From a virus (taxonomy: Duplodnaviria > Heunggongvirae > Uroviricota > Caudoviricetes), in IMG/VR virus record IMGVR_UViG_2698536454_000001, positions 1 to 24,586 of that record: a DNA stretch of 24,586 nucleotides; one strand, written 5' to 3'. Every line of letters starts with the position of its first letter. The stretch's first letter is position 1. The translations under genes were made by a program, and so were the position numbers. Below, one piece after another: positions 1,992 to 24,586 of this stretch. Under the pieces are notes generated by a model that made no database searches, was not told the DNA's origin, and was given only the letters and a program-made list of their open reading frames with translations.

Positions 1992-3463
1992 CAGATACAG
2001 CGTTATCTCCTGAAGAGCAGTTAATCGAGGATATTGCAGGGTTCACTCACGATCCGCTTGGCTATGCCCTCTATGCGTTCCCGTGGGGGGAAGAGGGGAC
2101 TGAACTGGCACATGCTACCGGCCCACGTCAGTGGCAGGCTGATGCGTTCCGAGAGATACGTGATCACCTGCAGAATCCGGAGACGCGCTATCAGCCGCTT
2201 ATGCTGTCACGCGCTTCTGGTCACGGTATTGGTAAATCCGCATTTATCTCAATGCTGATCAACTGGGGCATGTCCACTTGCGAGGATTGTAAGGTCGTGG
2301 TGACCGCCAACACCGACAACCAGCTACGAACGAAGACCTGGCCGGAAATTATCAAGTGGTCGAACCTTGCTATCACGAAAGACTGGTTTACCTGTACCGC
2401 TACCGCGATGTACAGCAATGACCCTGGGCACGACAAGCGGTGGCGAGCTGACGCAATCCCCTGGTCTGAGCACAACACTGAGGCATTCGCCGGACTACAC
2501 AACGAGCGCAAACGCATCATCGTGGTATTCGATGAAGCGTCGAACATTGCGGATCTGGTGTGGGAAGTTGCTGAGGGTGCGCTTACGGACGAAGACACTG
2601 AGATTATCTGGGTGGCGTTCGGAAACCCTACACGTAACACCGGACGTTTCCGCGAATGTTTCCGCAAATATAAACACCGCTGGAAAACTGCGCAGATTGA
2701 CAGCCGAACGGTGGAAGGCACCAACAAACAGCAGTTGCAGAAATGGGTTGATGACTACGGGGAAGACAGCGACTTCGTTAAAATCCGTGTGCGCGGCATA
2801 TTCCCGGATGCATCTGAATTGCAGTTTATCCCTACCGGTCTTACTGATGAGGCAATGAAACGGGTGGTAACCGCTGCGCAGGTTGCACATGCTCCTGTGA
2901 TAATCGGCGTTGACCCGGCATACTCCGGCGTTGATGACGCTGTGATATACCTGCGGCAGGGTCTGCACAGTAAGGTGCTGTGGACTGGCAACAAGACCAC
3001 TGACGATCTGATAATGGCGAAGCGTATCGCTGACTTTGAAGACCAGTACCAGGCTGACGCGGTGTTCATCGACTTCGGTTACGGAACCGGTCTGAAGTCA
3101 ATCGGTGACGGTTGGGGGCGCACATGGCAACTTGTTCCGTTCGGTGGCGCGTCTACTGACCCGCAGATGCTCAACAAGCGCGGGGAGATGTTCAACTCAT
3201 GCAAGACATGGCTGAGGTTGGGCGGGATGCTGGATGACCAGGAGACAGCGGACGATCTGTCGGCGGCAGAGTACAAAGTTCGCGTGGACGGTAAAATCGT
3301 TATCGAACCGAAGGAAGATATCAAGGAGCGGCTTGGGCGTTCGCCGGGTAAAGGCGATGCGCTACTGCTGACGTTTGCGTTCCCTGTGTCGAAGCGTCTG
3401 CGAATTCCCGGGCAGCAGAACCAGCAAGGCAAGGCCATCACAGATTACGATCCCTATGCTTAA
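1988..3463 (+). CDS. terminase large subunit
   Basis: 491 aa. Walker A-like SRASGHGIGKSAF, Walker B-like IIVVFDEASNI, C-terminal acidic nuclease-type motif VIIGVDPAYSGVDDAVI. GTG start coupled to the small-subunit stop. Confidence 0.85.
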   Translation: MTDTALSPEEQLIEDIAGFTHDPLGYALYAFPWGEEGTELAHATGPRQWQADAFREIRDHLQNPETRYQPLMLSRASGHGIGKSAFISMLINWGMSTCEDCKVVVTANTDNQLRTKTWPEIIKWSNLAITKDWFTCTATAMYSNDPGHDKRWRADAIPWSEHNTEAFAGLHNERKRIIVVFDEASNIADLVWEVAEGALTDEDTEIIWVAFGNPTRNTGRFRECFRKYKHRWKTAQIDSRTVEGTNKQQLQKWVDDYGEDSDFVKIRVRGIFPDASELQFIPTGLTDEAMKRVVTAAQVAHAPVIIGVDPAYSGVDDAVIYLRQGLHSKVLWTGNKTTDDLIMAKRIADFEDQYQADAVFIDFGYGTGLKSIGDGWGRTWQLVPFGGASTDPQMLNKRGEMFNSCKTWLRLGGMLDDQETADDLSAAEYKVRVDGKIVIEPKEDIKERLGRSPGKGDALLLTFAFPVSKRLRIPGQQNQQGKAITDYDPYA

Positions 3464-3514
3464 TCCGCTGGTGGGGATAATGCTGCTGATATCCTCTGGT
3501 GAGGATAAAACAAA

Positions 3515-3537
3515 GCCAGCCCATGAGCTGGCTGTTT
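3515..3537. terminator. bidirectional intrinsic terminator between convergent genes
   Basis: GCCAGC-ccatga-GCTGGC hairpin with TGTTTG on the + side and an A-rich run (UUUGUUUUAU on the - strand) on the other. Confidence 0.65.
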
Positions 3538-3549
3538 GTGACATGTCAC
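3538..3549. repeat. palindrome GTGACATGTCAC, copy 2 (between the bidirectional terminator and the stop of 3554..3925)
   Basis: Perfect 12-bp palindrome, then GGTGTTAT. Confidence 0.9.
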
Positions 3550-3553
3550 GGTG

Positions 3554-3925
3554 TTATTGCTCGCTTAACTTCTGCTTCAGCAAGTAACCTTCAAGCATCC
3601 AGATTTTGTTTACGGCATTCTGCCGGGCAATCTTCCGACCAATTTCTGCATCAAAGTTTTCCTGGCTTGCACAGGCACTCTCTCCGGTGACGGTGAAGCC
3701 ATTGCGCAGCACCAGGACGCAGAACGTCAGCAGAGAAAGTGATTCGTGCGGCTGGTAGTTTACCTCTCCGCCAGTATGTTTCGCTTTTATGGCTTTGCCA
3801 AAGGCACCATCTTCTGCTGTGAAATATGCCTCCTGAGCAATAATGCCTTCGATATGGTCTGGCGTAACGCGCGGTGCCGTTTTGCCTTTCTCAACGATTT
3901 CTTTTTCGATTTGCTGGTCGTTCAT
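3554..3925 (-). CDS. conserved small phage protein (123 aa), possibly Gp49/Sf6 gp66-like
   Basis: ATG 3925 with AGGTGAG RBS. Family name is a weak recollection, not verified. Confidence 0.6.
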   Translation of the reverse strand: MNDQQIEKEIVEKGKTAPRVTPDHIEGIIAQEAYFTAEDGAFGKAIKAKHTGGEVNYQPHESLSLLTFCVLVLRNGFTVTGESACASQENFDAEIGRKIARQNAVNKIWMLEGYLLKQKLSEQ

Positions 3926-3936
3926 AATCTCACCTT

Positions 3937-3960
3937 AAAAAAATGCCCGGCGAACCGGGC
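3937..3960 (-). terminator. intrinsic terminator (minus strand) directly upstream of the 3554..3925 RBS
   Basis: GCCCGG-ttcg-CCGGGC hairpin followed on the minus strand by a run of seven U. Confidence 0.6.
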
Positions 3961-4123
3961 GAACTGGAAGCAATGAGTTATGCCTTCCGTGGCTGTACGG
4001 GTTTACAGCATGAAGTCATCGCAATGGCGTCCTGCTGTAAAAAGGGCGGTGATAGTCCTTCAAGGGAAACCATCACCGCCAAGCACCTGGAACTTCTGGC
4101 ATCACGGTCCTTAGGCGTGATTC

Positions 4124-4200
4124 TGGCGTGGCATGCAGGATTCGAACCTGCGACCAACCGCTTAGAAGGCGGTTGGTCTGTCCGACTGAGCTAATGCCAC
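4124..4200 (-). tRNA. tRNA-Arg (anticodon UCU), argU-like, with one C-C mismatch in the D-stem
   Basis: Reverse complement folds as a 77-nt cloverleaf: 7-bp acceptor stem GTGGCAT/ATGCCAC, anticodon stem ACCGC/GCGGT with loop CTTCTAA, T-arm GCAGG-TTCGAAT-CCTGC, encoded G-CCA 3' end. D-stem GCTC/GACC has one mismatch. Confidence 0.85.
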
Positions 4201-4627
4201 AACGCTGAGAGCACTTAGCCTGTTAAGGCACCACACTTTGTCGCGGCTCCATAAATGCTCTCATCGTTGTACCCTCGTCTCTTCCGAGGCGTCACACCGA
4301 ATCGCCGGGATGGTGAATCCCCGTGCGCGGAATAAAACCGCTCGACTTGCACATTCCGGCTACCTGGTTCGTTTGCCCGAGCAAGGGAGGGTGCCCCTTA
4401 AACGTATCCAGACCGCTATCGGCGCATGTGCCATACGCCGTACTGCTCAAAATAAAAGCTCACTCCACCTGTTCAATTTAACGACAAGCCAGTCAGGTTA
4501 GTAACCGGAATGAGCTCTTTGGTTACCTGAAAGGTAATAATTTGTGCGTTAAATGTCAACTATCTACGATAAATAAATCATATGTGGTTAAATTGGTAAT
4601 AATTTAATTGCGTACGGAGTCATTGAT

Positions 4628-19983: not shown

Positions 19984-20424
19984 CTATTCACAATTAGTGA
20001 TGGCGTATGTATCAAATATATTGCCATCACTAAATACATACCTATACTCAATCTCTCCGCCAAGGTGAATAAATGCTTTCATTTGCCTGTTGGAGCAAAT
20101 GCTCGATTTTGAATAATTTCGCATTACACTCTTTAATTTATTTTCTAAGGTTACATCACCATTATAAACTTTTGATAAATAGCTGTTGTTGTAATTAAGA
20201 TGCGCTACAACTAAAAGTTTGTTTAGTATTGCATTTATTGAAACAATAGACATATTATCATTCAATTTTATGGGAAGTGACTTTCCTGCTTCTGATGCGA
20301 TTTTGTTTGCATGTGCACACATATCCTCATTTATTAAATTCTTAAAACATATGTCGTTTGCAAACGAAAAAATTGGTAGGATAAACAAAACGGTAGCTGT
20401 AATAGCGTGCATCGGCTTAATCAT
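19984..20424 (-). CDS. secreted/periplasmic protein of unknown function (146 aa)
   Basis: N-terminal signal peptide (MHAITATVLFILPIFSFA, then NDI); four Cys in the mature part; visibly AT-rich coding sequence. Start could be ATG 20424 or 20412. Confidence 0.6.
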   Translation of the reverse strand: MIKPMHAITATVLFILPIFSFANDICFKNLINEDMCAHANKIASEAGKSLPIKLNDNMSIVSINAILNKLLVVAHLNYNNSYLSKVYNGDVTLENKLKSVMRNYSKSSICSNRQMKAFIHLGGEIEYRYVFSDGNIFDTYAITNCE

Positions 20425-20436
20425 TAGGTGACCTTT

Positions 20437-20886
20437 ATGTTCAAGAAGATGATCAACAGATTAATCGGTGGTAAGGAGGTTAGCAATAAAATTCAACCTC
20501 TTATCTTTAAGGATAACTTTTCAGCTTTTGAGTATGCGTGTAAGTATCTTGACACAAGCCTTTCAGCCAATAAACCAATGCCAGCCATCATCATACCTGG
20601 CCCCAGTGGGGAACAGCCAGTTTTGCTAGATTCTGGAAGACAAAGGGCAATGCTGAAGGTGTGCTCAGCTGATGGTGGATTTTTTGTTATTGCCGATTCA
20701 TCTTACAGCAAAGGACCAAAGCTGAGGATTGGTGATCTTGTTGCTTGGTTGCCTGTGAGTTATGCCGAAGAATTAACGGATAAAATAGAAGATCCTCGCT
20801 CCGCTATGGTTGGCTTGATATTGGGAACCATTCATCCTGAACTAACATCTACTGGCTGGAAGGGTAAAGAAAGATTTCGCAAGTAG
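20437..20886 (+). CDS. soluble protein of unknown function (150 aa)
   Basis: Track ORF 20428..20886; ATG 20437 follows AGGTGA. AT-rich. Divergent from the secreted-protein gene with starts only about 12 bp apart. Confidence 0.6.
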   Translation: MFKKMINRLIGGKEVSNKIQPLIFKDNFSAFEYACKYLDTSLSANKPMPAIIIPGPSGEQPVLLDSGRQRAMLKVCSADGGFFVIADSSYSKGPKLRIGDLVAWLPVSYAEELTDKIEDPRSAMVGLILGTIHPELTSTGWKGKERFRK

Positions 20887-20887
20887 C

Positions 20888-20899
20888 GTGACATGTCAC
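20888..20899. repeat. palindrome GTGACATGTCAC, copy 3 (between the stop of 20437..20886 and a terminator)
   Basis: Perfect 12-bp palindrome 1 nt after TAG and 1 nt before the terminator hairpin. Confidence 0.9.
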
Positions 20900-20900
20900 A

Positions 20901-20925
20901 GGCCGCTTTCGCGGCCTTGTTTTTA
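20901..20925 (+). terminator. intrinsic terminator
   Basis: GGCCGC-tttc-GCGGCC hairpin followed by TTGTTTTT. Confidence 0.7.
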
Positions 20926-21084
20926 ACGAATGCCGCCGCCGCCCGGGCGGGAATCCGCAGAACGCCCACCGCAGCGGGAGCCGTCAGCGGCAGTATCGCT
21001 GTCGTGCTGACAACGGCCGGCAAAGGCCTGAGTTGAAGCTACCAGAGACAACAAAACGAACAGTGCAGCAAATGCTTTTTTCAT
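20923..21084 (-). CDS. possible small secreted peptide (53 aa)
   Basis: Inside track ORF 20923..21111. ATG 21084 gives MKKAFAALFVLLSLVASTQAFA (signal-like) plus a Gly/Arg/Asp-rich 31-aa tail with two Cys. Weak RBS; GC-rich island in an AT-rich block. Confidence 0.3.
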   Translation of the reverse strand: MKKAFAALFVLLSLVASTQAFAGRCQHDSDTAADGSRCGGRSADSRPGGGGIR

Positions 21085-21157
21085 TGTGAAAAATTTCCAT
21101 CTATAAGCCACCTCAATGTGGCGTCAATGAGTGTAGCACTGACTTTTGTTTCGTCCA

Positions 21158-21178
21158 CAAAAAAGCCCGCAGCGCAGG
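21158..21178 (-). terminator. intrinsic terminator right after the stop of 21180..21719
   Basis: GCCUGC-gcu-GCGGGC hairpin (one G-U pair) followed by six U on the minus strand. Confidence 0.6.
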
Positions 21179-21179
21179 C

Positions 21180-21719
21180 TTACCAAAACTTGTACCACGG
21201 GGATTTATCCTTCAATGGACAATCCTTCCATCGTGTGGCCAACCATTCATATTCTTTAAAATATGTGTTTATGTTTTCTTTTTCTCTAATGGCTTGTATA
21301 AGAGGTAGCGCAATCTGATAGTTATTTACAACGGAGCTGTAAAATACTTCCTTAATCATGGTCTCATCATAAGTTTTCCGCTTCACGCTCACAGCCATGC
21401 GTTCGTAGAAACCTAGACAGTAAATTATTTCTCTCTTCTCTGTCTTTTCTTCATCCGTAAGATCAGCCTGCCCATTGCTTGGATACATATAAGAGCGGAA
21501 TGATTTGTTCGATTCGTGAATGCGGCGCATAGTAGATAGGCCTTTCTTATAATCTACATCAAACCTGCTTTCACCAAGGAATACTGAAGTGTGTACTTTT
21601 CTCGCTGTATTTACATTATAAATAATAGTAGCGATAGCTATGAACAAGCCAAGCGAAACCGCGACTGCACTTACGATTTGAGCCACAGCCATGGCAAATT
21701 GCATTTCTTCACTTAACAC
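21180..21719 (-). CDS. membrane-anchored protein of unknown function (179 aa)
   Basis: GTG 21719 follows GGAGA (alternative ATG 21704). One N-terminal transmembrane helix (AMAVAQIVSAVAVSLGLFIAIATIIY), then a charged soluble domain; AT-rich. Confidence 0.6.
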   Translation of the reverse strand: MLSEEMQFAMAVAQIVSAVAVSLGLFIAIATIIYNVNTARKVHTSVFLGESRFDVDYKKGLSTMRRIHESNKSFRSYMYPSNGQADLTDEEKTEKREIIYCLGFYERMAVSVKRKTYDETMIKEVFYSSVVNNYQIALPLIQAIREKENINTYFKEYEWLATRWKDCPLKDKSPWYKFW

Positions 21720-21734
21720 AAACTGTCTCCAGAC

Positions 21735-21758
21735 ATGAAAACGGGGCCTAATGGCCCC
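21735..21758 (-). terminator. intrinsic terminator directly upstream of the 21180..21719 RBS
   Basis: GGGGCC-auua-GGCCCC hairpin followed by GUUUUC on the minus strand. Confidence 0.55.
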
Positions 21759-21894
21759 GTCATTAAACTATCCGAATGTTAAACGCCTTCGTACTCGTCA
21801 AATTTTCTCATGTGGGCTCCTCCTGTATCGGTGCCTAATCGCTATGGATCACCCGTGAGGTAATAGTACGCTATTCACCTGCAATCTGTACAGA

Positions 21895-21920
21895 ATTATT
21901 TAAAGGCACATCCCTGTGCC
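21895..21920 (-). terminator. weak terminator-like hairpin after the antirepressor gene
   Basis: GGCACA-ggga-UGUGCC followed by UUUAAAUAAUU. Confidence 0.35.
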
Positions 21921-21928
21921 GCCGCCCG

Positions 21929-22615
21929 TCAGAAGAACCCTGCCTTGTCATTGATGTACTCTGCGTGAGTCTGGATATCACGCAGGCATTTGCTCACACC
22001 GACGATGTAGCAGAACATGGTGGTCAGTTCCGCCGCTGCGCCCGATACGTCGTGCCCGTCGTCCTGTAACTGGTTCAGCAGATTCATCAGCAGTGAGTTC
22101 TCCGTCAGGCCGAGAACACCAGACGGCGAGTGAATCAGGCTGCGGTAGCCGGGCTTCAGTGGGGCACTGTAGGTTTTGTTCTCTATCTTCATCGCCTGCA
22201 TTACTGCTGACGCCGTGGCGTTGGCTACCTGGTCGGCAACCATCTTTATGCGTTCTTCCTGCGGGAGCGAGTTTTTAATGTAACTTCCGGTGCGGCGGAT
22301 CTGAGGAAGAACCTCACCTGTAACCCATTTACGAAAGCGGTAGGGGATAGTGCCTGGTGTCACCGCATCGCGGCAGCGGAGGATCAGTGTGTAGAGGCCT
22401 GACTCGTTGATAATATTGGTTTCGCCTTGACGGCCTAAGTTAAATTTAGCCCTTTCATCATCATCAAGAGATTTTATTGACATAGTGGGGTTTGTCAGTT
22501 GAAGAGCTTTAATAACGTCTTTGGCAACAAACCAAGGATTTCCATCAATAACAATGGCTCGAATGGTTGCTTCTGATTCAAAATGAAAAACAGATGGGGT
22601 TACGTTAGCAGTCAT
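21929..22615 (-). CDS. Bro-N domain antirepressor (Ant-like), 228 aa
   Basis: Track ORF 21929..22768; ATG 22615 follows AAAGGTGA. N-terminal Bro-N signature (FHFESEATIRAIVIDGNPWFVAKDVIKAL). C-terminal 85 aa homologous to the product of 22929..23186. Confidence 0.75.
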   Translation of the reverse strand: MTANVTPSVFHFESEATIRAIVIDGNPWFVAKDVIKALQLTNPTMSIKSLDDDERAKFNLGRQGETNIINESGLYTLILRCRDAVTPGTIPYRFRKWVTGEVLPQIRRTGSYIKNSLPQEERIKMVADQVANATASAVMQAMKIENKTYSAPLKPGYRSLIHSPSGVLGLTENSLLMNLLNQLQDDGHDVSGAAAELTTMFCYIVGVSKCLRDIQTHAEYINDKAGFF

Positions 22616-22768
22616 AGTGATCACCTTTGTAGTTAGGTTAATCACCACTACCGACGCCAATCGGTTGGTGGTGAACTGTGCAGGGTTGGCGTAACCGGCT
22701 ACAAAGGACCCGGCGCACCTTTCGGTGCCCCCACACAGCCCACCATAGAATAGGTGCGCTTTACACAT

Positions 22769-22788
22769 AAAAAAAACCGCTTATGCGG
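22769..22788 (-). terminator. strong intrinsic terminator between the small LexA-controlled gene and ant
   Basis: CCGC-auaa-GCGG hairpin followed by eight U on the minus strand, with an adjacent GGCA-cata-TGCC hairpin. Confidence 0.7.
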
Positions 22789-22928
22789 CATATGTGCCTC
22801 TGTAGTAACCCGGGACGCCAATCCCGGCACTAGATTTTGCCAGTGCCCGACTACTATGGCACAAGAGGAGTGCGATGTAAATTTACCGCAAAGGTAAATA
22901 TAAGCACTCCACTTGGTAATTGCAAACC

Positions 22929-23186
22929 TTATCTGGTTTGTTTTCGTAATTGTTCGGCACAATAGTCGAGATGTGTTTGCAGATCCTGCATAGACATCTG
23001 TGAGCTGGTGACGTAGTTAATCAGTGCAGTCAGTTCGGCAAGTGGGCCATCGACATTAAATCCATCCTTATCGAGATCCCGGAGTAATTTCATCAAGTGC
23101 GATCTCTCCACCAGTGACCTGACGCCTCCCGGCGTGTGAATCCTTTCGGTAAATCCGTCTTCCAGTGGATAGTGATACTGCTGCAT
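22929..23186 (-). CDS. small antirepressor-like protein (85 aa), LexA-box-preceded
   Basis: Track ORF 22929..23204 begins at TTG; ATG 23186 follows GGAGAA. Aligns with the Ant C-terminal domain (IH-P-GV, LM-LL, DG-V-G-AELT, D-QTH-Y). Confidence 0.65.
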   Translation of the reverse strand: MQQYHYPLEDGFTERIHTPGGVRSLVERSHLMKLLRDLDKDGFNVDGPLAELTALINYVTSSQMSMQDLQTHLDYCAEQLRKQTR

Positions 23187-23205
23187 CTTATCTTCTCCAT
23201 GCAAT

Positions 23206-23225
23206 AACTGTATATTTATACAGTA
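23206..23225. promoter_or_regulatory. LexA (SOS) box
   Basis: AACTGTATATTTATACAGTA matches the consensus TACTGTATATATATACAGTA at 18 of 20 positions, including both CTGT/ACAG arms; about 20 nt upstream of the minus-strand ATG 23186. Confidence 0.75.
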
Positions 23226-23381
23226 TCAAATAATTTGTTTGCTATCCAGCACGTTTTGCAAATCACCTGAAAGGTAATATCTATTCGTATTTATGGGTTG
23301 TCTATCCATATGTGGTTTTTCGGGTAATAGAATAACCGGATATGCGGCGCAACGGGTGCTGCGACTATCTGGAGAATTAAC

Positions 23382-24586
23382 ATGACAGTCTCAACCGAAA
23401 TCAGCCACAATGAGTATCTCGGGAATGGAGTCACGACATCATTCCCATATACTTTCAGAATTTTTAAAGATACAGATCTTGATGTAAGCACAATAACCGC
23501 TGACGGTCTTGTTTCTCCAATGATCCTGGGGACAGATTACATGGTTACAGGTGCTGGCTTATCTTCCGGTGGAAGCGTTATTACGTCATCTCCTGTTTTG
23601 CCAGGCATTACAATATCAATCACTCGTAACCTTCCAGCAGTGCAGGAAACTGATTTAAGAAATCAGGGGAAATTTTTTGCAGAGGTCCATGAGGATGCAT
23701 TCGACTACCTTACCATGCTTATTCAGCATGCGATGTTCAACATCGGTGCTCTTCAGAGAAATACGCTTAGGGTTCCTGAAAACAGTGTAAACCTGGTGCC
23801 AAAGGTATCAAGTCGCCGGAATATGATTTTTGGCTGGGATGACAGTGGGCAGCCTATAGCCATTCTCCCTCCGAGTGCTTCTGCCAGTGAAGTGCTGATT
23901 CTTCTTGCTCAGCCTGACGGATGGAAAAAGATCGGTGGCGTGGATAAATTTGAGCCGATACCAATCACCGTTATGCCATCTTACAATCAATCAAACGTTG
24001 TTGCAGCATGGGTGGAGAGTGTAAATCTCTATGGCTATGTTTATTTCCCTTGTCACTCTGCAACAAAGAAAACTTATACAATACCAGGAACGGCCTCACA
24101 GGCAGGAAATCTGCAAAACTCCCGTGTAATCGTTGATAAAAACGTCATTCTTAAATTCGACAGCGATCTTTACTCGCTTTATAAGTCGCTGAAGTTTGAA
24201 GGTGAATGCACTTTTGAGTTTTCCCATCTTAATTTCACAACAACCGGTGGAGAAGTGGATTACCTGGCAAAGCAGGCTATCCTCAACCGAAACCCTATCC
24301 GCATGAAGCGAGTGGAATGGTCAGATTGTAAAATCTATTCCATACATGATGACGTGTTCTTCTATGAAGGTGAAGTCGTCACATACTCAGATAGCGCAGC
24401 TATCCTCGGCTTAACTACTAACCGTATTACAGGCCTGTTCGCGCCAATAGGTATTGGAGAGCATATTTCTGCACATATTCGCATGGAGTCTCAGACCGCC
24501 TCAGAAGTTGGGATTGTTCTGCGATGCTCTGGTGGTTGGATGATGTTCTATGGGGCACCAGGTGCTACACAGTGGTCTTATAGACA
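23382..24586 (+). CDS. tailspike protein (3' end outside window), conserved N-terminal particle-binding domain
   Basis: ATG 23382 follows GGAGAA and the frame stays open to the window end. N-terminus (MTVSTEISHNEYLGNGVTTSFPYTFRIFKD...TDYMVTGAG...ETDLRNQGKFFAEVHEDAFDYLTMLIQ) matches the conserved tailspike N-terminal domain of enterobacterial podoviruses as I recall it. Confidence 0.8.
   Translation, partial: MTVSTEISHNEYLGNGVTTSFPYTFRIFKDTDLDVSTITADGLVSPMILGTDYMVTGAGLSSGGSVITSSPVLPGITISITRNLPAVQETDLRNQGKFFAEVHEDAFDYLTMLIQHAMFNIGALQRNTLRVPENSVNLVPKVSSRRNMIFGWDDSGQPIAILPPSASASEVLILLAQPDGWKKIGGVDKFEPIPITVMPSYNQSNVVAAWVESVNLYGYVYFPCHSATKKTYTIPGTASQAGNLQNSRVIVDKNVILKFDSDLYSLYKSLKFEGECTFEFSHLNFTTTGGEVDYLAKQAILNRNPIRMKRVEWSDCKIYSIHDDVFFYEGEVVTYSDSAAILGLTTNRITGLFAPIGIGEHISAHIRMESQTASEVGIVLRCSGGWMMFYGAPGATQWSYR

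Follow-up and report, generated by a model that had tools for sequence, protein, structure and literature searches.

What kind of switch is formed by two antirepressor genes that lie next to each other on one strand of a prophage, and do they obey one signal or two? The question is raised by the minus-strand genes at positions 21,929 to 23,225 of a Caudoviricetes sequence from IMG/VR (record IMGVR_UViG_2698536454_000001), of which we analysed the whole stretch of 24,586 nucleotides (nt), referred to as the window from here on. The first gene, ant, encodes a small protein and lies behind a LexA box, and the second encodes a Bro-N protein that ends in a diverged copy of the Ant domain. An earlier note, made from the sequence alone, had treated both as a single module controlled by the SOS response. 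The explanation that we consider probably correct, judged as a whole, is that the region serves a phiV10/epsilon15-like prophage (genus Uetakevirus) as its antirepressor hub and is made of two adjoining minus-strand units: a LexA-controlled ant gene and, behind it, a cassette with a promoter of its own, in which expression of the Bro-N gene is gated by RNA. The coordinates of the features are collected in Table 1.

As far as the first unit is concerned, the near-consensus LexA box that had been pointed out just upstream of ant is borne out by counting. It is the sole site with three mismatches or fewer in the 24.6-kilobase (kb) window, and 0 of 100 shuffles yielded any. The core CTGT-N8-ACAG is found three times against 0.39 expected, the other two sites having G+C-rich centres and failing the consensus test at three mismatches. 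The box ends 20 nt before the ATG of ant (23186), and its position is kept in the phages SPC32H, Tyrion, phiV10, TL-2011b and ZX5. What is more, Ant has a single match among all PDB sequences, namely chain E of entry 5D50, named 'Anti-repressor protein' (phmmer, E 5e-47, residues 2-84); it belongs to phrog_450 (E 1e-47), and it is 86-88% identical to Ant of SPC32H (88% by tblastn). In both genomes ant is divergent from the tailspike gene at the same place, and the upstream region, LexA box included, can be aligned. A tblastn search with Ant matched 35 phage records, including SPC32H and SPC32N (annotated ant), and of the records whose taxonomy was checked, none is classified outside Uetakevirus.

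How would such a protein induce the prophage? What we say on Ant, Rep and LexA of SPC32H rests on citing papers and on PDB molecule names. In the passages of these papers that concern SPC32H, production of the antirepressor follows the self-cleavage of LexA (PMC7380047, citing Kim and Ryu 2013), Ant binds the repressor Rep at its C-terminal domain (PMC9986798), and Ant is stated to be a homotetramer. The repressor region lies outside the window; a Rep homologue is known from the prophage of strain Ecol_AZ146, whose module is 97.8% identical to that of the window, as a helix-turn-helix protein of 194 residues with a full-length match to SPC32H Rep (5D50_A, E 4e-42). Because the window Ant is so close to that of SPC32H, induction through inactivation of the repressor, and not through its autocleavage, is to be expected here as well, and the proposal of the earlier note that an SOS-controlled antirepressor would act instead of repressor cleavage is well supported by these sequence comparisons. 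SOS-antirepressor induction has already been established for this genus, so the ant half of the locus is known. Less fortunate was the choice of Tum and Gifsy as comparison families, the true relative, SPC32H Ant, having gone unnamed. It is known that LexA-repressed small antirepressors encoded outside the immunity region inactivate an uncleavable repressor (PMC3121763), and Tum of phage 186, GfoA, GfhA and GftA of the Gifsy prophages and AntC of N15 follow the same logic as the window Ant; they are analogues, however, and not members of its family. Namely, BLASTP gave no alignment of the window Ant to the 73-residue open reading frame (ORF) of the Gifsy-1 LexA-box/dinI unit, an ORF whose antirepressor identity is assumed here; within this group the sequence comparison covered that ORF, and not Tum or AntC.

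The second unit begins in the 313 nt between the two genes, which contain a promoter and the genes of two RNAs, isrK and C4. The sigma-70-like site ends 7 nt before the start of isrK as defined by Rfam, and its sequence (TTGTGCCATAGT) is kept in all Uetakevirus cassettes; at the same position Gifsy-1 has TTGACA/TATATT, and experiments there showed that the antirepressor gene behind it is driven by the isrK promoter (PMC4825925). In its 5' part isrK additionally matches the c4-a1b1 family (RF03163) with 39.2 bits and an E value of 5.5e-8, which is under the gathering score of 46.7. The strong terminator that had been seen between the genes is present, but it is a modest one, with a stem of 5 base pairs (bp), and it belongs to the isrK small RNA (sRNA), in a spacer that also holds the promoter and the two RNA genes. 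The loops a' and b' of C4 can each pair twice, namely with the sites a2 and b2 in the leader of the Bro-N mRNA, of which a2 overlaps the Shine-Dalgarno sequence (SD), and with a1 and b1 in isrK, where a' and a1 form 9 bp including one G-U and b' and b1 pair over 7 nt.

Does this pairing extend beyond the window? Ten related loci have the isrK-C4 tandem with a gene of antirepressor type (Bro-N, Rha or another) not more than about 50 nt behind it, namely those of phiV10, TL-2011b, ZX5, Tyrion, Kp4865-1, APSE-7, Gifsy-1, vB_EcoP_phi296 (a Stx-phage-like coliphage), SfV and PhiR26_1. Among the tandem loci a' takes seven sequence variants and b' three, and every variant is accompanied by fitting changes in a1 and a2, or in b1 and b2, the exception being SfV, which is without a matching b2; prophage L015 adds a further variant triple. 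The covariation was tested by exact complements and by duplex energies with permutation, while an alignment of the RNA module by MAFFT, in which the a' loops with their varying lengths were out of register, was set aside for the counting of pairs. The cognate duplexes of a' have a mean energy of -11.6 kcal/mol, against -6.6 (a2) and -5.8 kcal/mol (a1) for non-cognate ones, and the cognate energy was equalled in 0 of 20000 permutations. Since the C4 loops are complementary both to the Bro-N ribosome-binding site and to isrK, with covariation, the Bro-N gene appears to be RNA-gated and not simply an SOS gene; in this, and in its own promoter-like site, it departs from the plain part of an SOS module for which it had been taken.

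Parts of this pairing have been noticed before. In particular, the complementarity of IsrK to the C4-like STnc1160 was remarked by the Gifsy-1 authors, in whose work IsrK supplied in trans raises translation of the downstream antirepressor more than 100-fold (PMC4825925), and the match of C4 a' and b' to the leader of the adjacent Bro-N gene was remarked for the APSE phages (PMC7313666). In the window there is no icd-type ORF, the distance from C4 to the Bro-N ATG being only 48 nt; upstream ORFs vary in frame and length (15 codons in the window, 37 in phiV10 and ZX5), and the equivalent of Gifsy-1 orf45 is cut to its 15 codons by a stop in the a' loop. Without an icd-type ORF, and with orf45 cut in this way, the ribosome-binding site of the Bro-N gene must be the direct point of control. 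Just 3' of b2 (22641-22660, minus strand), all related loci have a conserved GGUGGUGAU that is complementary to UCACCACC, the 3' strand of the stem closing C4. This suggests that the two could pair as an alternative, with possible effects on the processing of C4 or on the structure of the leader.

Could LexA nevertheless govern both genes, with the terminator attenuating read-through into the Bro-N gene, in the manner of the Tum/Gifsy family? One LexA box does lie upstream of both same-strand genes, and the terminator scan found no canonical terminator between the ant stop and isrK, so that ant transcripts probably run into isrK, the terminator of which is short and has a leaky counterpart in Gifsy-1 (PMC4825925). 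All the same, we consider a single SOS module of this kind improbable, given that the promoter-like site is conserved exactly 7 nt upstream of the Rfam isrK start, that the isrK-C4 cassette works without a LexA box in Gifsy-1, the Stx phages, SfV and APSE, that C4 is complementary to the Bro-N ribosome-binding site and covaries with it, that the Salmonella relatives have the LexA box and ant alone, with a terminator of their own, and that there is no similarity to the Gifsy-1 small ORF.

The Bro-N protein itself connects the two units, as its C-terminal part, of about 80 residues, does share a domain with the stand-alone Ant, just as had been claimed: 31 of 78 positions are identical by BLASTP (40%, E 1e-15), and 37% over 83 columns of a MAFFT alignment. 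The same C-terminus matches SPC32H Ant (5D50_E) with E 2e-13 and phrog_450 with E 6e-36. The name 'Ant-C domain' that this part had been given needs a qualification, however. Namely, a Pfam search with both proteins gave no match to PF03374 (ANT/KilAC), the Bro-N domain (PF02498, E 5e-20, 72.3 bits against a cut-off of 25.6) being the sole domain found, and since no Pfam model covers the shared domain, real as it is, it should not be equated with Pfam ANT/KilAC. An exhaustive HMMER search among 1.84 billion representatives found the domain in only 65 clusters, made up of stand-alone proteins of about 85-95 residues and of C-terminal fusions to Bro-N, AntA, Phage_pRha and ORF6N; a word-indexed protein search recovered the close stand-alone Ant only, and the fusions needed the exhaustive search. 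Neighbour-joining places the stand-alone Ant and the fused copies of Uetakevirus type in a clade each, with three more divergent fusions outside both. What is more, Ant and the fused copy within one phage are 36-38% identical, which is below the 51-86% of orthologues across host genera, and together with the separate clades this means that the duplication is old. The paralogue and the Ant orthologues have 22 invariant positions in common. The same fused protein is present in TL-2011b, ZX5, Tyrion and Kp4865-1, and in prophage L015 AntA replaces Bro-N at the same locus with the C-domain unchanged, a swap which suggests that it is the C-domain that stays constant and is tied to function.

Given the diverged Ant domain at its C-terminus, the Bro-N protein should be a second antirepressor, with a Rep-type repressor as its expected target. 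The window protein is 82% identical to ORF4 of phage ZX5, from which it differs as in a mosaic, namely in the first 70 or so residues of the Bro-N domain and in one residue beyond about residue 73, and overexpression of ORF4 was pro-lytic, with a fall in lysogens from 1e9 to 1e6 and a loss of 75% of the rep mRNA (PMC9782041). Would the same observations be compatible with another target? It could be argued that the Bro-N protein is not an antirepressor of its own Rep, and that it targets the repressors of other Uetakeviruses, or that the C-domain is a mere oligomerisation module of a DNA-binding Bro-N regulator. Parallels would be the cross-talk and anti-immunity of P1/P7 Ant and of Gifsy GfoA/GfhA, trans-acting antirepressors are documented (PMC3121763), the fused clade is separate, old and diverged enough from the stand-alone one within each phage for a changed specificity, the domain is fused to four different N-terminal domains of DNA-binding type, and SPC32H Ant is itself a tetramer in the words of the citing paper. 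We regard this alternative as unlikely, if with an appreciable chance of being right, as overexpressed ORF4 pushed ZX5 itself towards lysis (PMC9782041) and as the fused paralogue has been kept beside ant, with the phage's own palindrome (see below) at its promoter, in three host genera. To the further idea that the Bro-N protein antagonises Ant, forming inactive mixed tetramers or competing for Rep without releasing it, and so dampens induction, we assign scarcely any probability: while the homotetramer in which Ant is stated to act and the 22 common positions would suit it, the ZX5 orthologue promotes, and does not inhibit, the lytic cycle (PMC9782041), and isrK/C4 cassettes elsewhere gate proteins that promote induction.

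If the Bro-N protein is a second antirepressor of Rep, is its unit also tied to Rep through the DNA? The palindrome TTACC-N5-GGTAA occurs six times in the window against 0.37 expected (at 1363-1377, 1381-1395, 4523-4537, 21849-21863, 22883-22897 and 23263-23277), ten times in the early region of the AZ146 prophage against 0.34 expected and 18 times in SPC32H against 0.68 expected, which amounts to an enrichment of 15- to 30-fold. The rep-cro gap is occupied by three copies in SPC32H and by two in AZ146; in SPC32H a further three are found just past rep, and most others precede operons. In the Uetakeviruses the palindrome stands in front of most operons. From this genome-wide distribution the palindrome is probably the operator of Rep, and perhaps also of Cro; no text giving the Rep operator sequence was found. 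The copy between ant and the tailspike gene is kept in position in SPC32H, Tyrion, phiV10 and ZX5. The copy at the isrK promoter keeps its half-sites, with a varying 5-nt centre, in phiV10, TL-2011b, ZX5, Tyrion, Kp4865 and L015, and it is absent from the cassettes of Gifsy-1, Stx, SfV and APSE. The two copies within 1363-1395 sit inside the ORF called the small terminase subunit, which suggests that the annotated start of this ORF is too far upstream.

Taken together, these elements suggest the following course of events. In it, the sequence features, the homologies and the RNA covariation come directly from our analysis, while experiments on relatives are the source for the binding of Rep by Ant, for the control by SOS and for the Bro-N protein being pro-lytic. 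Upon DNA damage, LexA would be cleaved and Ant made, the LexA box lying over or just upstream of the ant start. By analogy with SPC32H, Ant would then bind the C-terminal domain of Rep and split the DNA-binding Rep tetramer into dimers, so that induction would take place without repressor cleavage. The second unit would be a separately promoted cassette of the P1-immI/Gifsy-1 type, composed of promoter, isrK with a leaky terminator, C4, the b2 and a2 sites and the Bro-N gene. In this cassette C4 would pair with a2 and b2 and block translation of the Bro-N gene, and isrK, carrying the same two sites, may compete for C4 or remodel the read-through transcript, thereby releasing translation. The Ant-like domain of the Bro-N protein would in turn act on the Rep-type repressor, its presumed target. 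Moreover, if the palindrome is the Rep operator, Rep may control the second unit, in which case Ant made under SOS conditions would also unlock the second antirepressor.

That said, several observations weigh against this scheme. To begin with, the promoter of ant could not be placed by consensus: if the sole scan site, TAGACA-17-GATATT at 23276-23304, were used, the LexA box would lie about 45-65 nt into the transcript. The alternative TTGATA-N16-TTATTG, with which promoter and LexA box would be arranged much as in recA, was rejected, as the SD would have no room. Furthermore, in the published Gifsy-1 model IsrK acts on the long mRNA through orf45, and with this ORF cut to 15 codons in the window, the details of the mechanism must differ from that model. 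The ZX5 experiment used a GST-tagged, overexpressed ORF4 (PMC9782041), and an identity of 37-40% is no proof that Ant and the Bro-N C-domain have one and the same Rep as partner. An imperfect hairpin of the ant 3' region includes the palindrome at 22883-22897, whose centre at about -44 could equally suit an activator or have no role there. Finally, the Bro-N copy of phiV10 is frameshifted within the Ant-like domain, being split into p23 of 194 residues and p22 of 29 residues (phiV10 3071-3750), which means that at least one viable phage can do without the cassette. In phiV10 an extended, perfect palindrome of 18 bp stands in place of the -35 of the isrK promoter, and the cassette may be inactive in this type phage.

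Is the cassette, then, a decaying mobile insertion without a present role in the phage? The frameshift and the weakened -35 of phiV10 would agree with decay, as would the roughly 1.1 kb of extra DNA between ant and isrK in TL-2011b and the Salmonella relatives that manage without a cassette. Such decay is in our judgement highly improbable, however, considering the intact ORFs and the compensating changes that match all three RNA sites in phages of E. coli, Enterobacter and Klebsiella, as well as at least 114 complete E. coli genomes that have 80% or more of the query. This last count, made among 5426 complete genomes with a 1.7-kb query (window 21700-23400), also speaks against the statement that the pairing of a stand-alone and a fused domain is an unusual arrangement. 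Namely, the Uetakeviruses of E. coli, Enterobacter and Klebsiella have ant plus cassette as the standard arrangement, and the Salmonella members lack it; all 12 of the 12 Salmonella phage records had a single Ant-like place by tblastn, and SPC32H has neither isrK nor C4. The extra DNA of TL-2011b (3280-4368) carries an opposite-strand annotation, 'similar to hypothetical protein', and a third Ant-like place was seen by tblastn in TL-2011b and HEMP4.

How do the two units compare with known systems? The Ant/Rep pair of SPC32H (PDB 5D50, 5D4Z) was reportedly described by Kim and Ryu 2013 (J Virol) and by Kim et al. 2016 (PNAS). SPC32H is like the window in the size of Ant (86 versus 85 residues), in the place of the LexA box and in the upstream palindrome; it differs in that its ant stands alone with its own terminator, whereas in the window ant is followed by the 1.0-kb RNA-gated second antirepressor gene. 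The immI operon of P1 and P7, consisting of the c4 antisense RNA, icd and ant, is said to have been described by Citron and Schuster 1990. In this operon C4 blocks the expression of ant by pairing with the leader, and in P1 the C1-controlled Op51 lies at the operon promoter. The window shares with P1/P7 immI a C4 (RF01695) with loops a' and b', an upstream a1b1, a downstream a2b2, an antirepressor as the output and, possibly, a repressor-controlled operator at the operon promoter. In contrast to P1 immI with its icd-like coupled ORF, a2 in the window lies directly on the SD of the antirepressor itself, and a1b1 is packaged as a terminated sRNA, isrK.

The isrK-orf45-anrP-isrJ unit of Gifsy-1 has in common with the window the isrK-C4 (STnc1160) tandem, its spacing, the place of the promoter, a leaky isrK terminator and a downstream antirepressor-like gene that induces the prophage when expressed (Hershko-Shalev et al. 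2016, PMC4825925). It differs in that orf45 of the window has 15 codons, that the window protein is unrelated to AnrP and that an Rfam scan of the window gave no isrJ match; in addition, unlike that of the window, the Gifsy-1 cassette is located behind the Q gene, a long way from the antirepressor under LexA control. The logic of a stand-alone plus a fused copy was also considered for Gifsy-1, which likewise has antirepressors of both kinds, and rejected, as the two Gifsy-1 proteins tested have no common domain. As for ZX5, its ORF4 'anti-repressor' is an orthologue at the same locus, with ant, isrK and C4 upstream, and the paper treats ORF4 as the only antirepressor, the small ant, the LexA box, the RNAs and the shared domain being unmentioned (PMC9782041). 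Every component of the locus is of a known kind, and the combination of two inputs is undescribed in the literature that we searched. In particular, we did not find described there a LexA-gated Ant paired with a further antirepressor that is gated by RNA and has a paralogous copy of the Ant domain, nor interchangeable N-terminal domains, nor an operator-like palindrome at the promoter of such a cassette.

The setting agrees with a Uetakevirus prophage. The 1.7 kb around the module are 93-98% identical to Escherichia phages Phi05_1387 B, TL-2011b, vB_EcoP_ZX5 and phiV10, and are also matched in prophages of many E. coli chromosomes, that of strain Ecol_AZ146 being integrated at guaA. The gene order of the window, with terminase, portal, capsid, large internal proteins, a minus-strand block and the tailspike, is the order of epsilon15-like podophages. 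The accessory block that precedes the module also encodes two proteins of unknown function, phrog_9944 and phrog_8772, and at the position of this block SPC32H has only a membrane protein of 46 residues. PADLOC gave zero matches for the Bro-N protein and for the neighbouring accessory genes. A tRNA gene lies between the terminase and portal genes (4127-4200, minus strand, 62.5 bits), where the relatives have a tRNA-Arg. Just downstream of the operator-like palindrome that follows the Bro-N gene there is an ORF of 10 codons, MRKFDEYEGV (21780-21812, minus strand), with a strong SD, GGAGG, which could be a leader peptide or a micro-protein; a G+C-rich terminator hairpin at about 21742-21765 follows it, directly upstream of the DUF4760 gene. 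The hairpin after the Bro-N stop was read from the sequence, the terminator scan having given no call for it, and is a possible end of the Bro-N unit. Some ORFs across the RNA genes were rejected as read-through. These are an ORF of 279 residues from 22768, which would extend the Bro-N ORF N-terminally by 51 codons and reads through both RNA genes, an ORF of 87 residues at 22699-22962, and the 'ash family protein' of ZX5 (ZX5 1669-1782); the database proteins P0124 and P0132 have spurious N-terminal extensions across the RNA genes.

Table 1. Features of the antirepressor region and its surroundings, in window coordinates
Feature	Position	Strand	Remarks
Palindrome TCACCTGAAAGGTAA	23263-23277		ant/tailspike intergenic; candidate Rep (or Cro) operator
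LexA box AACTGTATATTTATACAGTA	23206-23225		18/20 to consensus TACTGTATATATATACAGTA (2 mismatches)
ant	22929-23186	-	85 residues from ATG; SD GGAGAA 23193-23198; SPC32H Ant orthologue
Palindrome TTACCGCAAAGGTAA	22883-22897		abuts isrK promoter -35, centre about -44; candidate Rep operator
Candidate isrK promoter TTTACA-17 nt-(TG)CATAGT	22853-22881	-	consensus scan; start about 22846
isrK sRNA (a1b1 element)	22770-22846	-	Rfam RF01394, 72.3 bits against gathering score 50
b1 UUGGCGU	22815-22821	-	second hairpin loop of isrK
a1 CUACAGAGG	22797-22805	-	single-stranded stretch of isrK
isrK terminator stem	22776-22789	-	5 bp, 4 of them G-C, then run of eight T on transcribed strand
C4 antisense RNA	22664-22750	-	Rfam RF01695, 79.5 bits against gathering score 45, full length 1-87
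C4 loop a' CCUUUGUAG	22699-22707	-	
C4 loop b' ACGCCAA	22686-22692	-	
C4 target region, Bro-N mRNA leader	22621-22660	-	b2 and a2
b2 UUGGCGU	22654-22660	-	exact 7-nt complement of b'
a2 CUACAAAGG	22624-22632	-	exact 9-nt complement of a'; overlaps SD AAGGUGA 22621-22627
Bro-N antirepressor	21929-22615	-	228 residues from ATG 22615; Bro-N at residues about 18-104
Ant-like C-terminal domain of Bro-N protein	21932-22177	-	residues about 147-228
Hairpin GGCACAGGGAUGUGCC then UUUAAAUAAUU	21894-21920	-	after Bro-N stop
Palindrome TCACCCGTGAGGTAA	21849-21863		downstream of Bro-N gene; operator-like
Accessory block	19984-21719		between late operon and antirepressor module
DUF4760 gene	21180-21719		phrog_2284
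Membrane-associated moron, 62 residues	20923-21111		phrog_14503

How could such a pair of units have come about? Tentatively, and as a history that may well prove wrong, we propose that a mobile isrK/C4 cassette in the non-Salmonella Uetakeviruses was adapted to the phage switch by gaining a Rep operator and a paralogue of the Ant domain, which would have resulted in an induction of two stages. If the scheme holds, the LexA-gated Ant would be the trigger, and the second antirepressor, repressed by Rep and given a threshold by RNA, would be a positive feedback. Induction would then be irreversible once LexA is restored, and the N-terminal domain, be it Bro-N, AntA or Rha, would be interchangeable.

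As far as annotation is concerned, our results correct that of common E. coli prophages, in which the SOS antirepressor is now 'hypothetical', the RNA genes are shown as spurious ORFs and the Bro-N protein is taken as the only antirepressor. They also bring to light an antirepressor effector domain, so far unmodelled, that has been shuffled behind N-terminal domains of four kinds, namely Bro-N, AntA, Rha and ORF6N. What is more, the locus would be a compact natural system in which one repressor-binding domain is placed both under a host protein repressor and under an antisense-RNA/decoy pair of the phage, and with it the way in which SOS-dependent and SOS-independent induction combine becomes testable.

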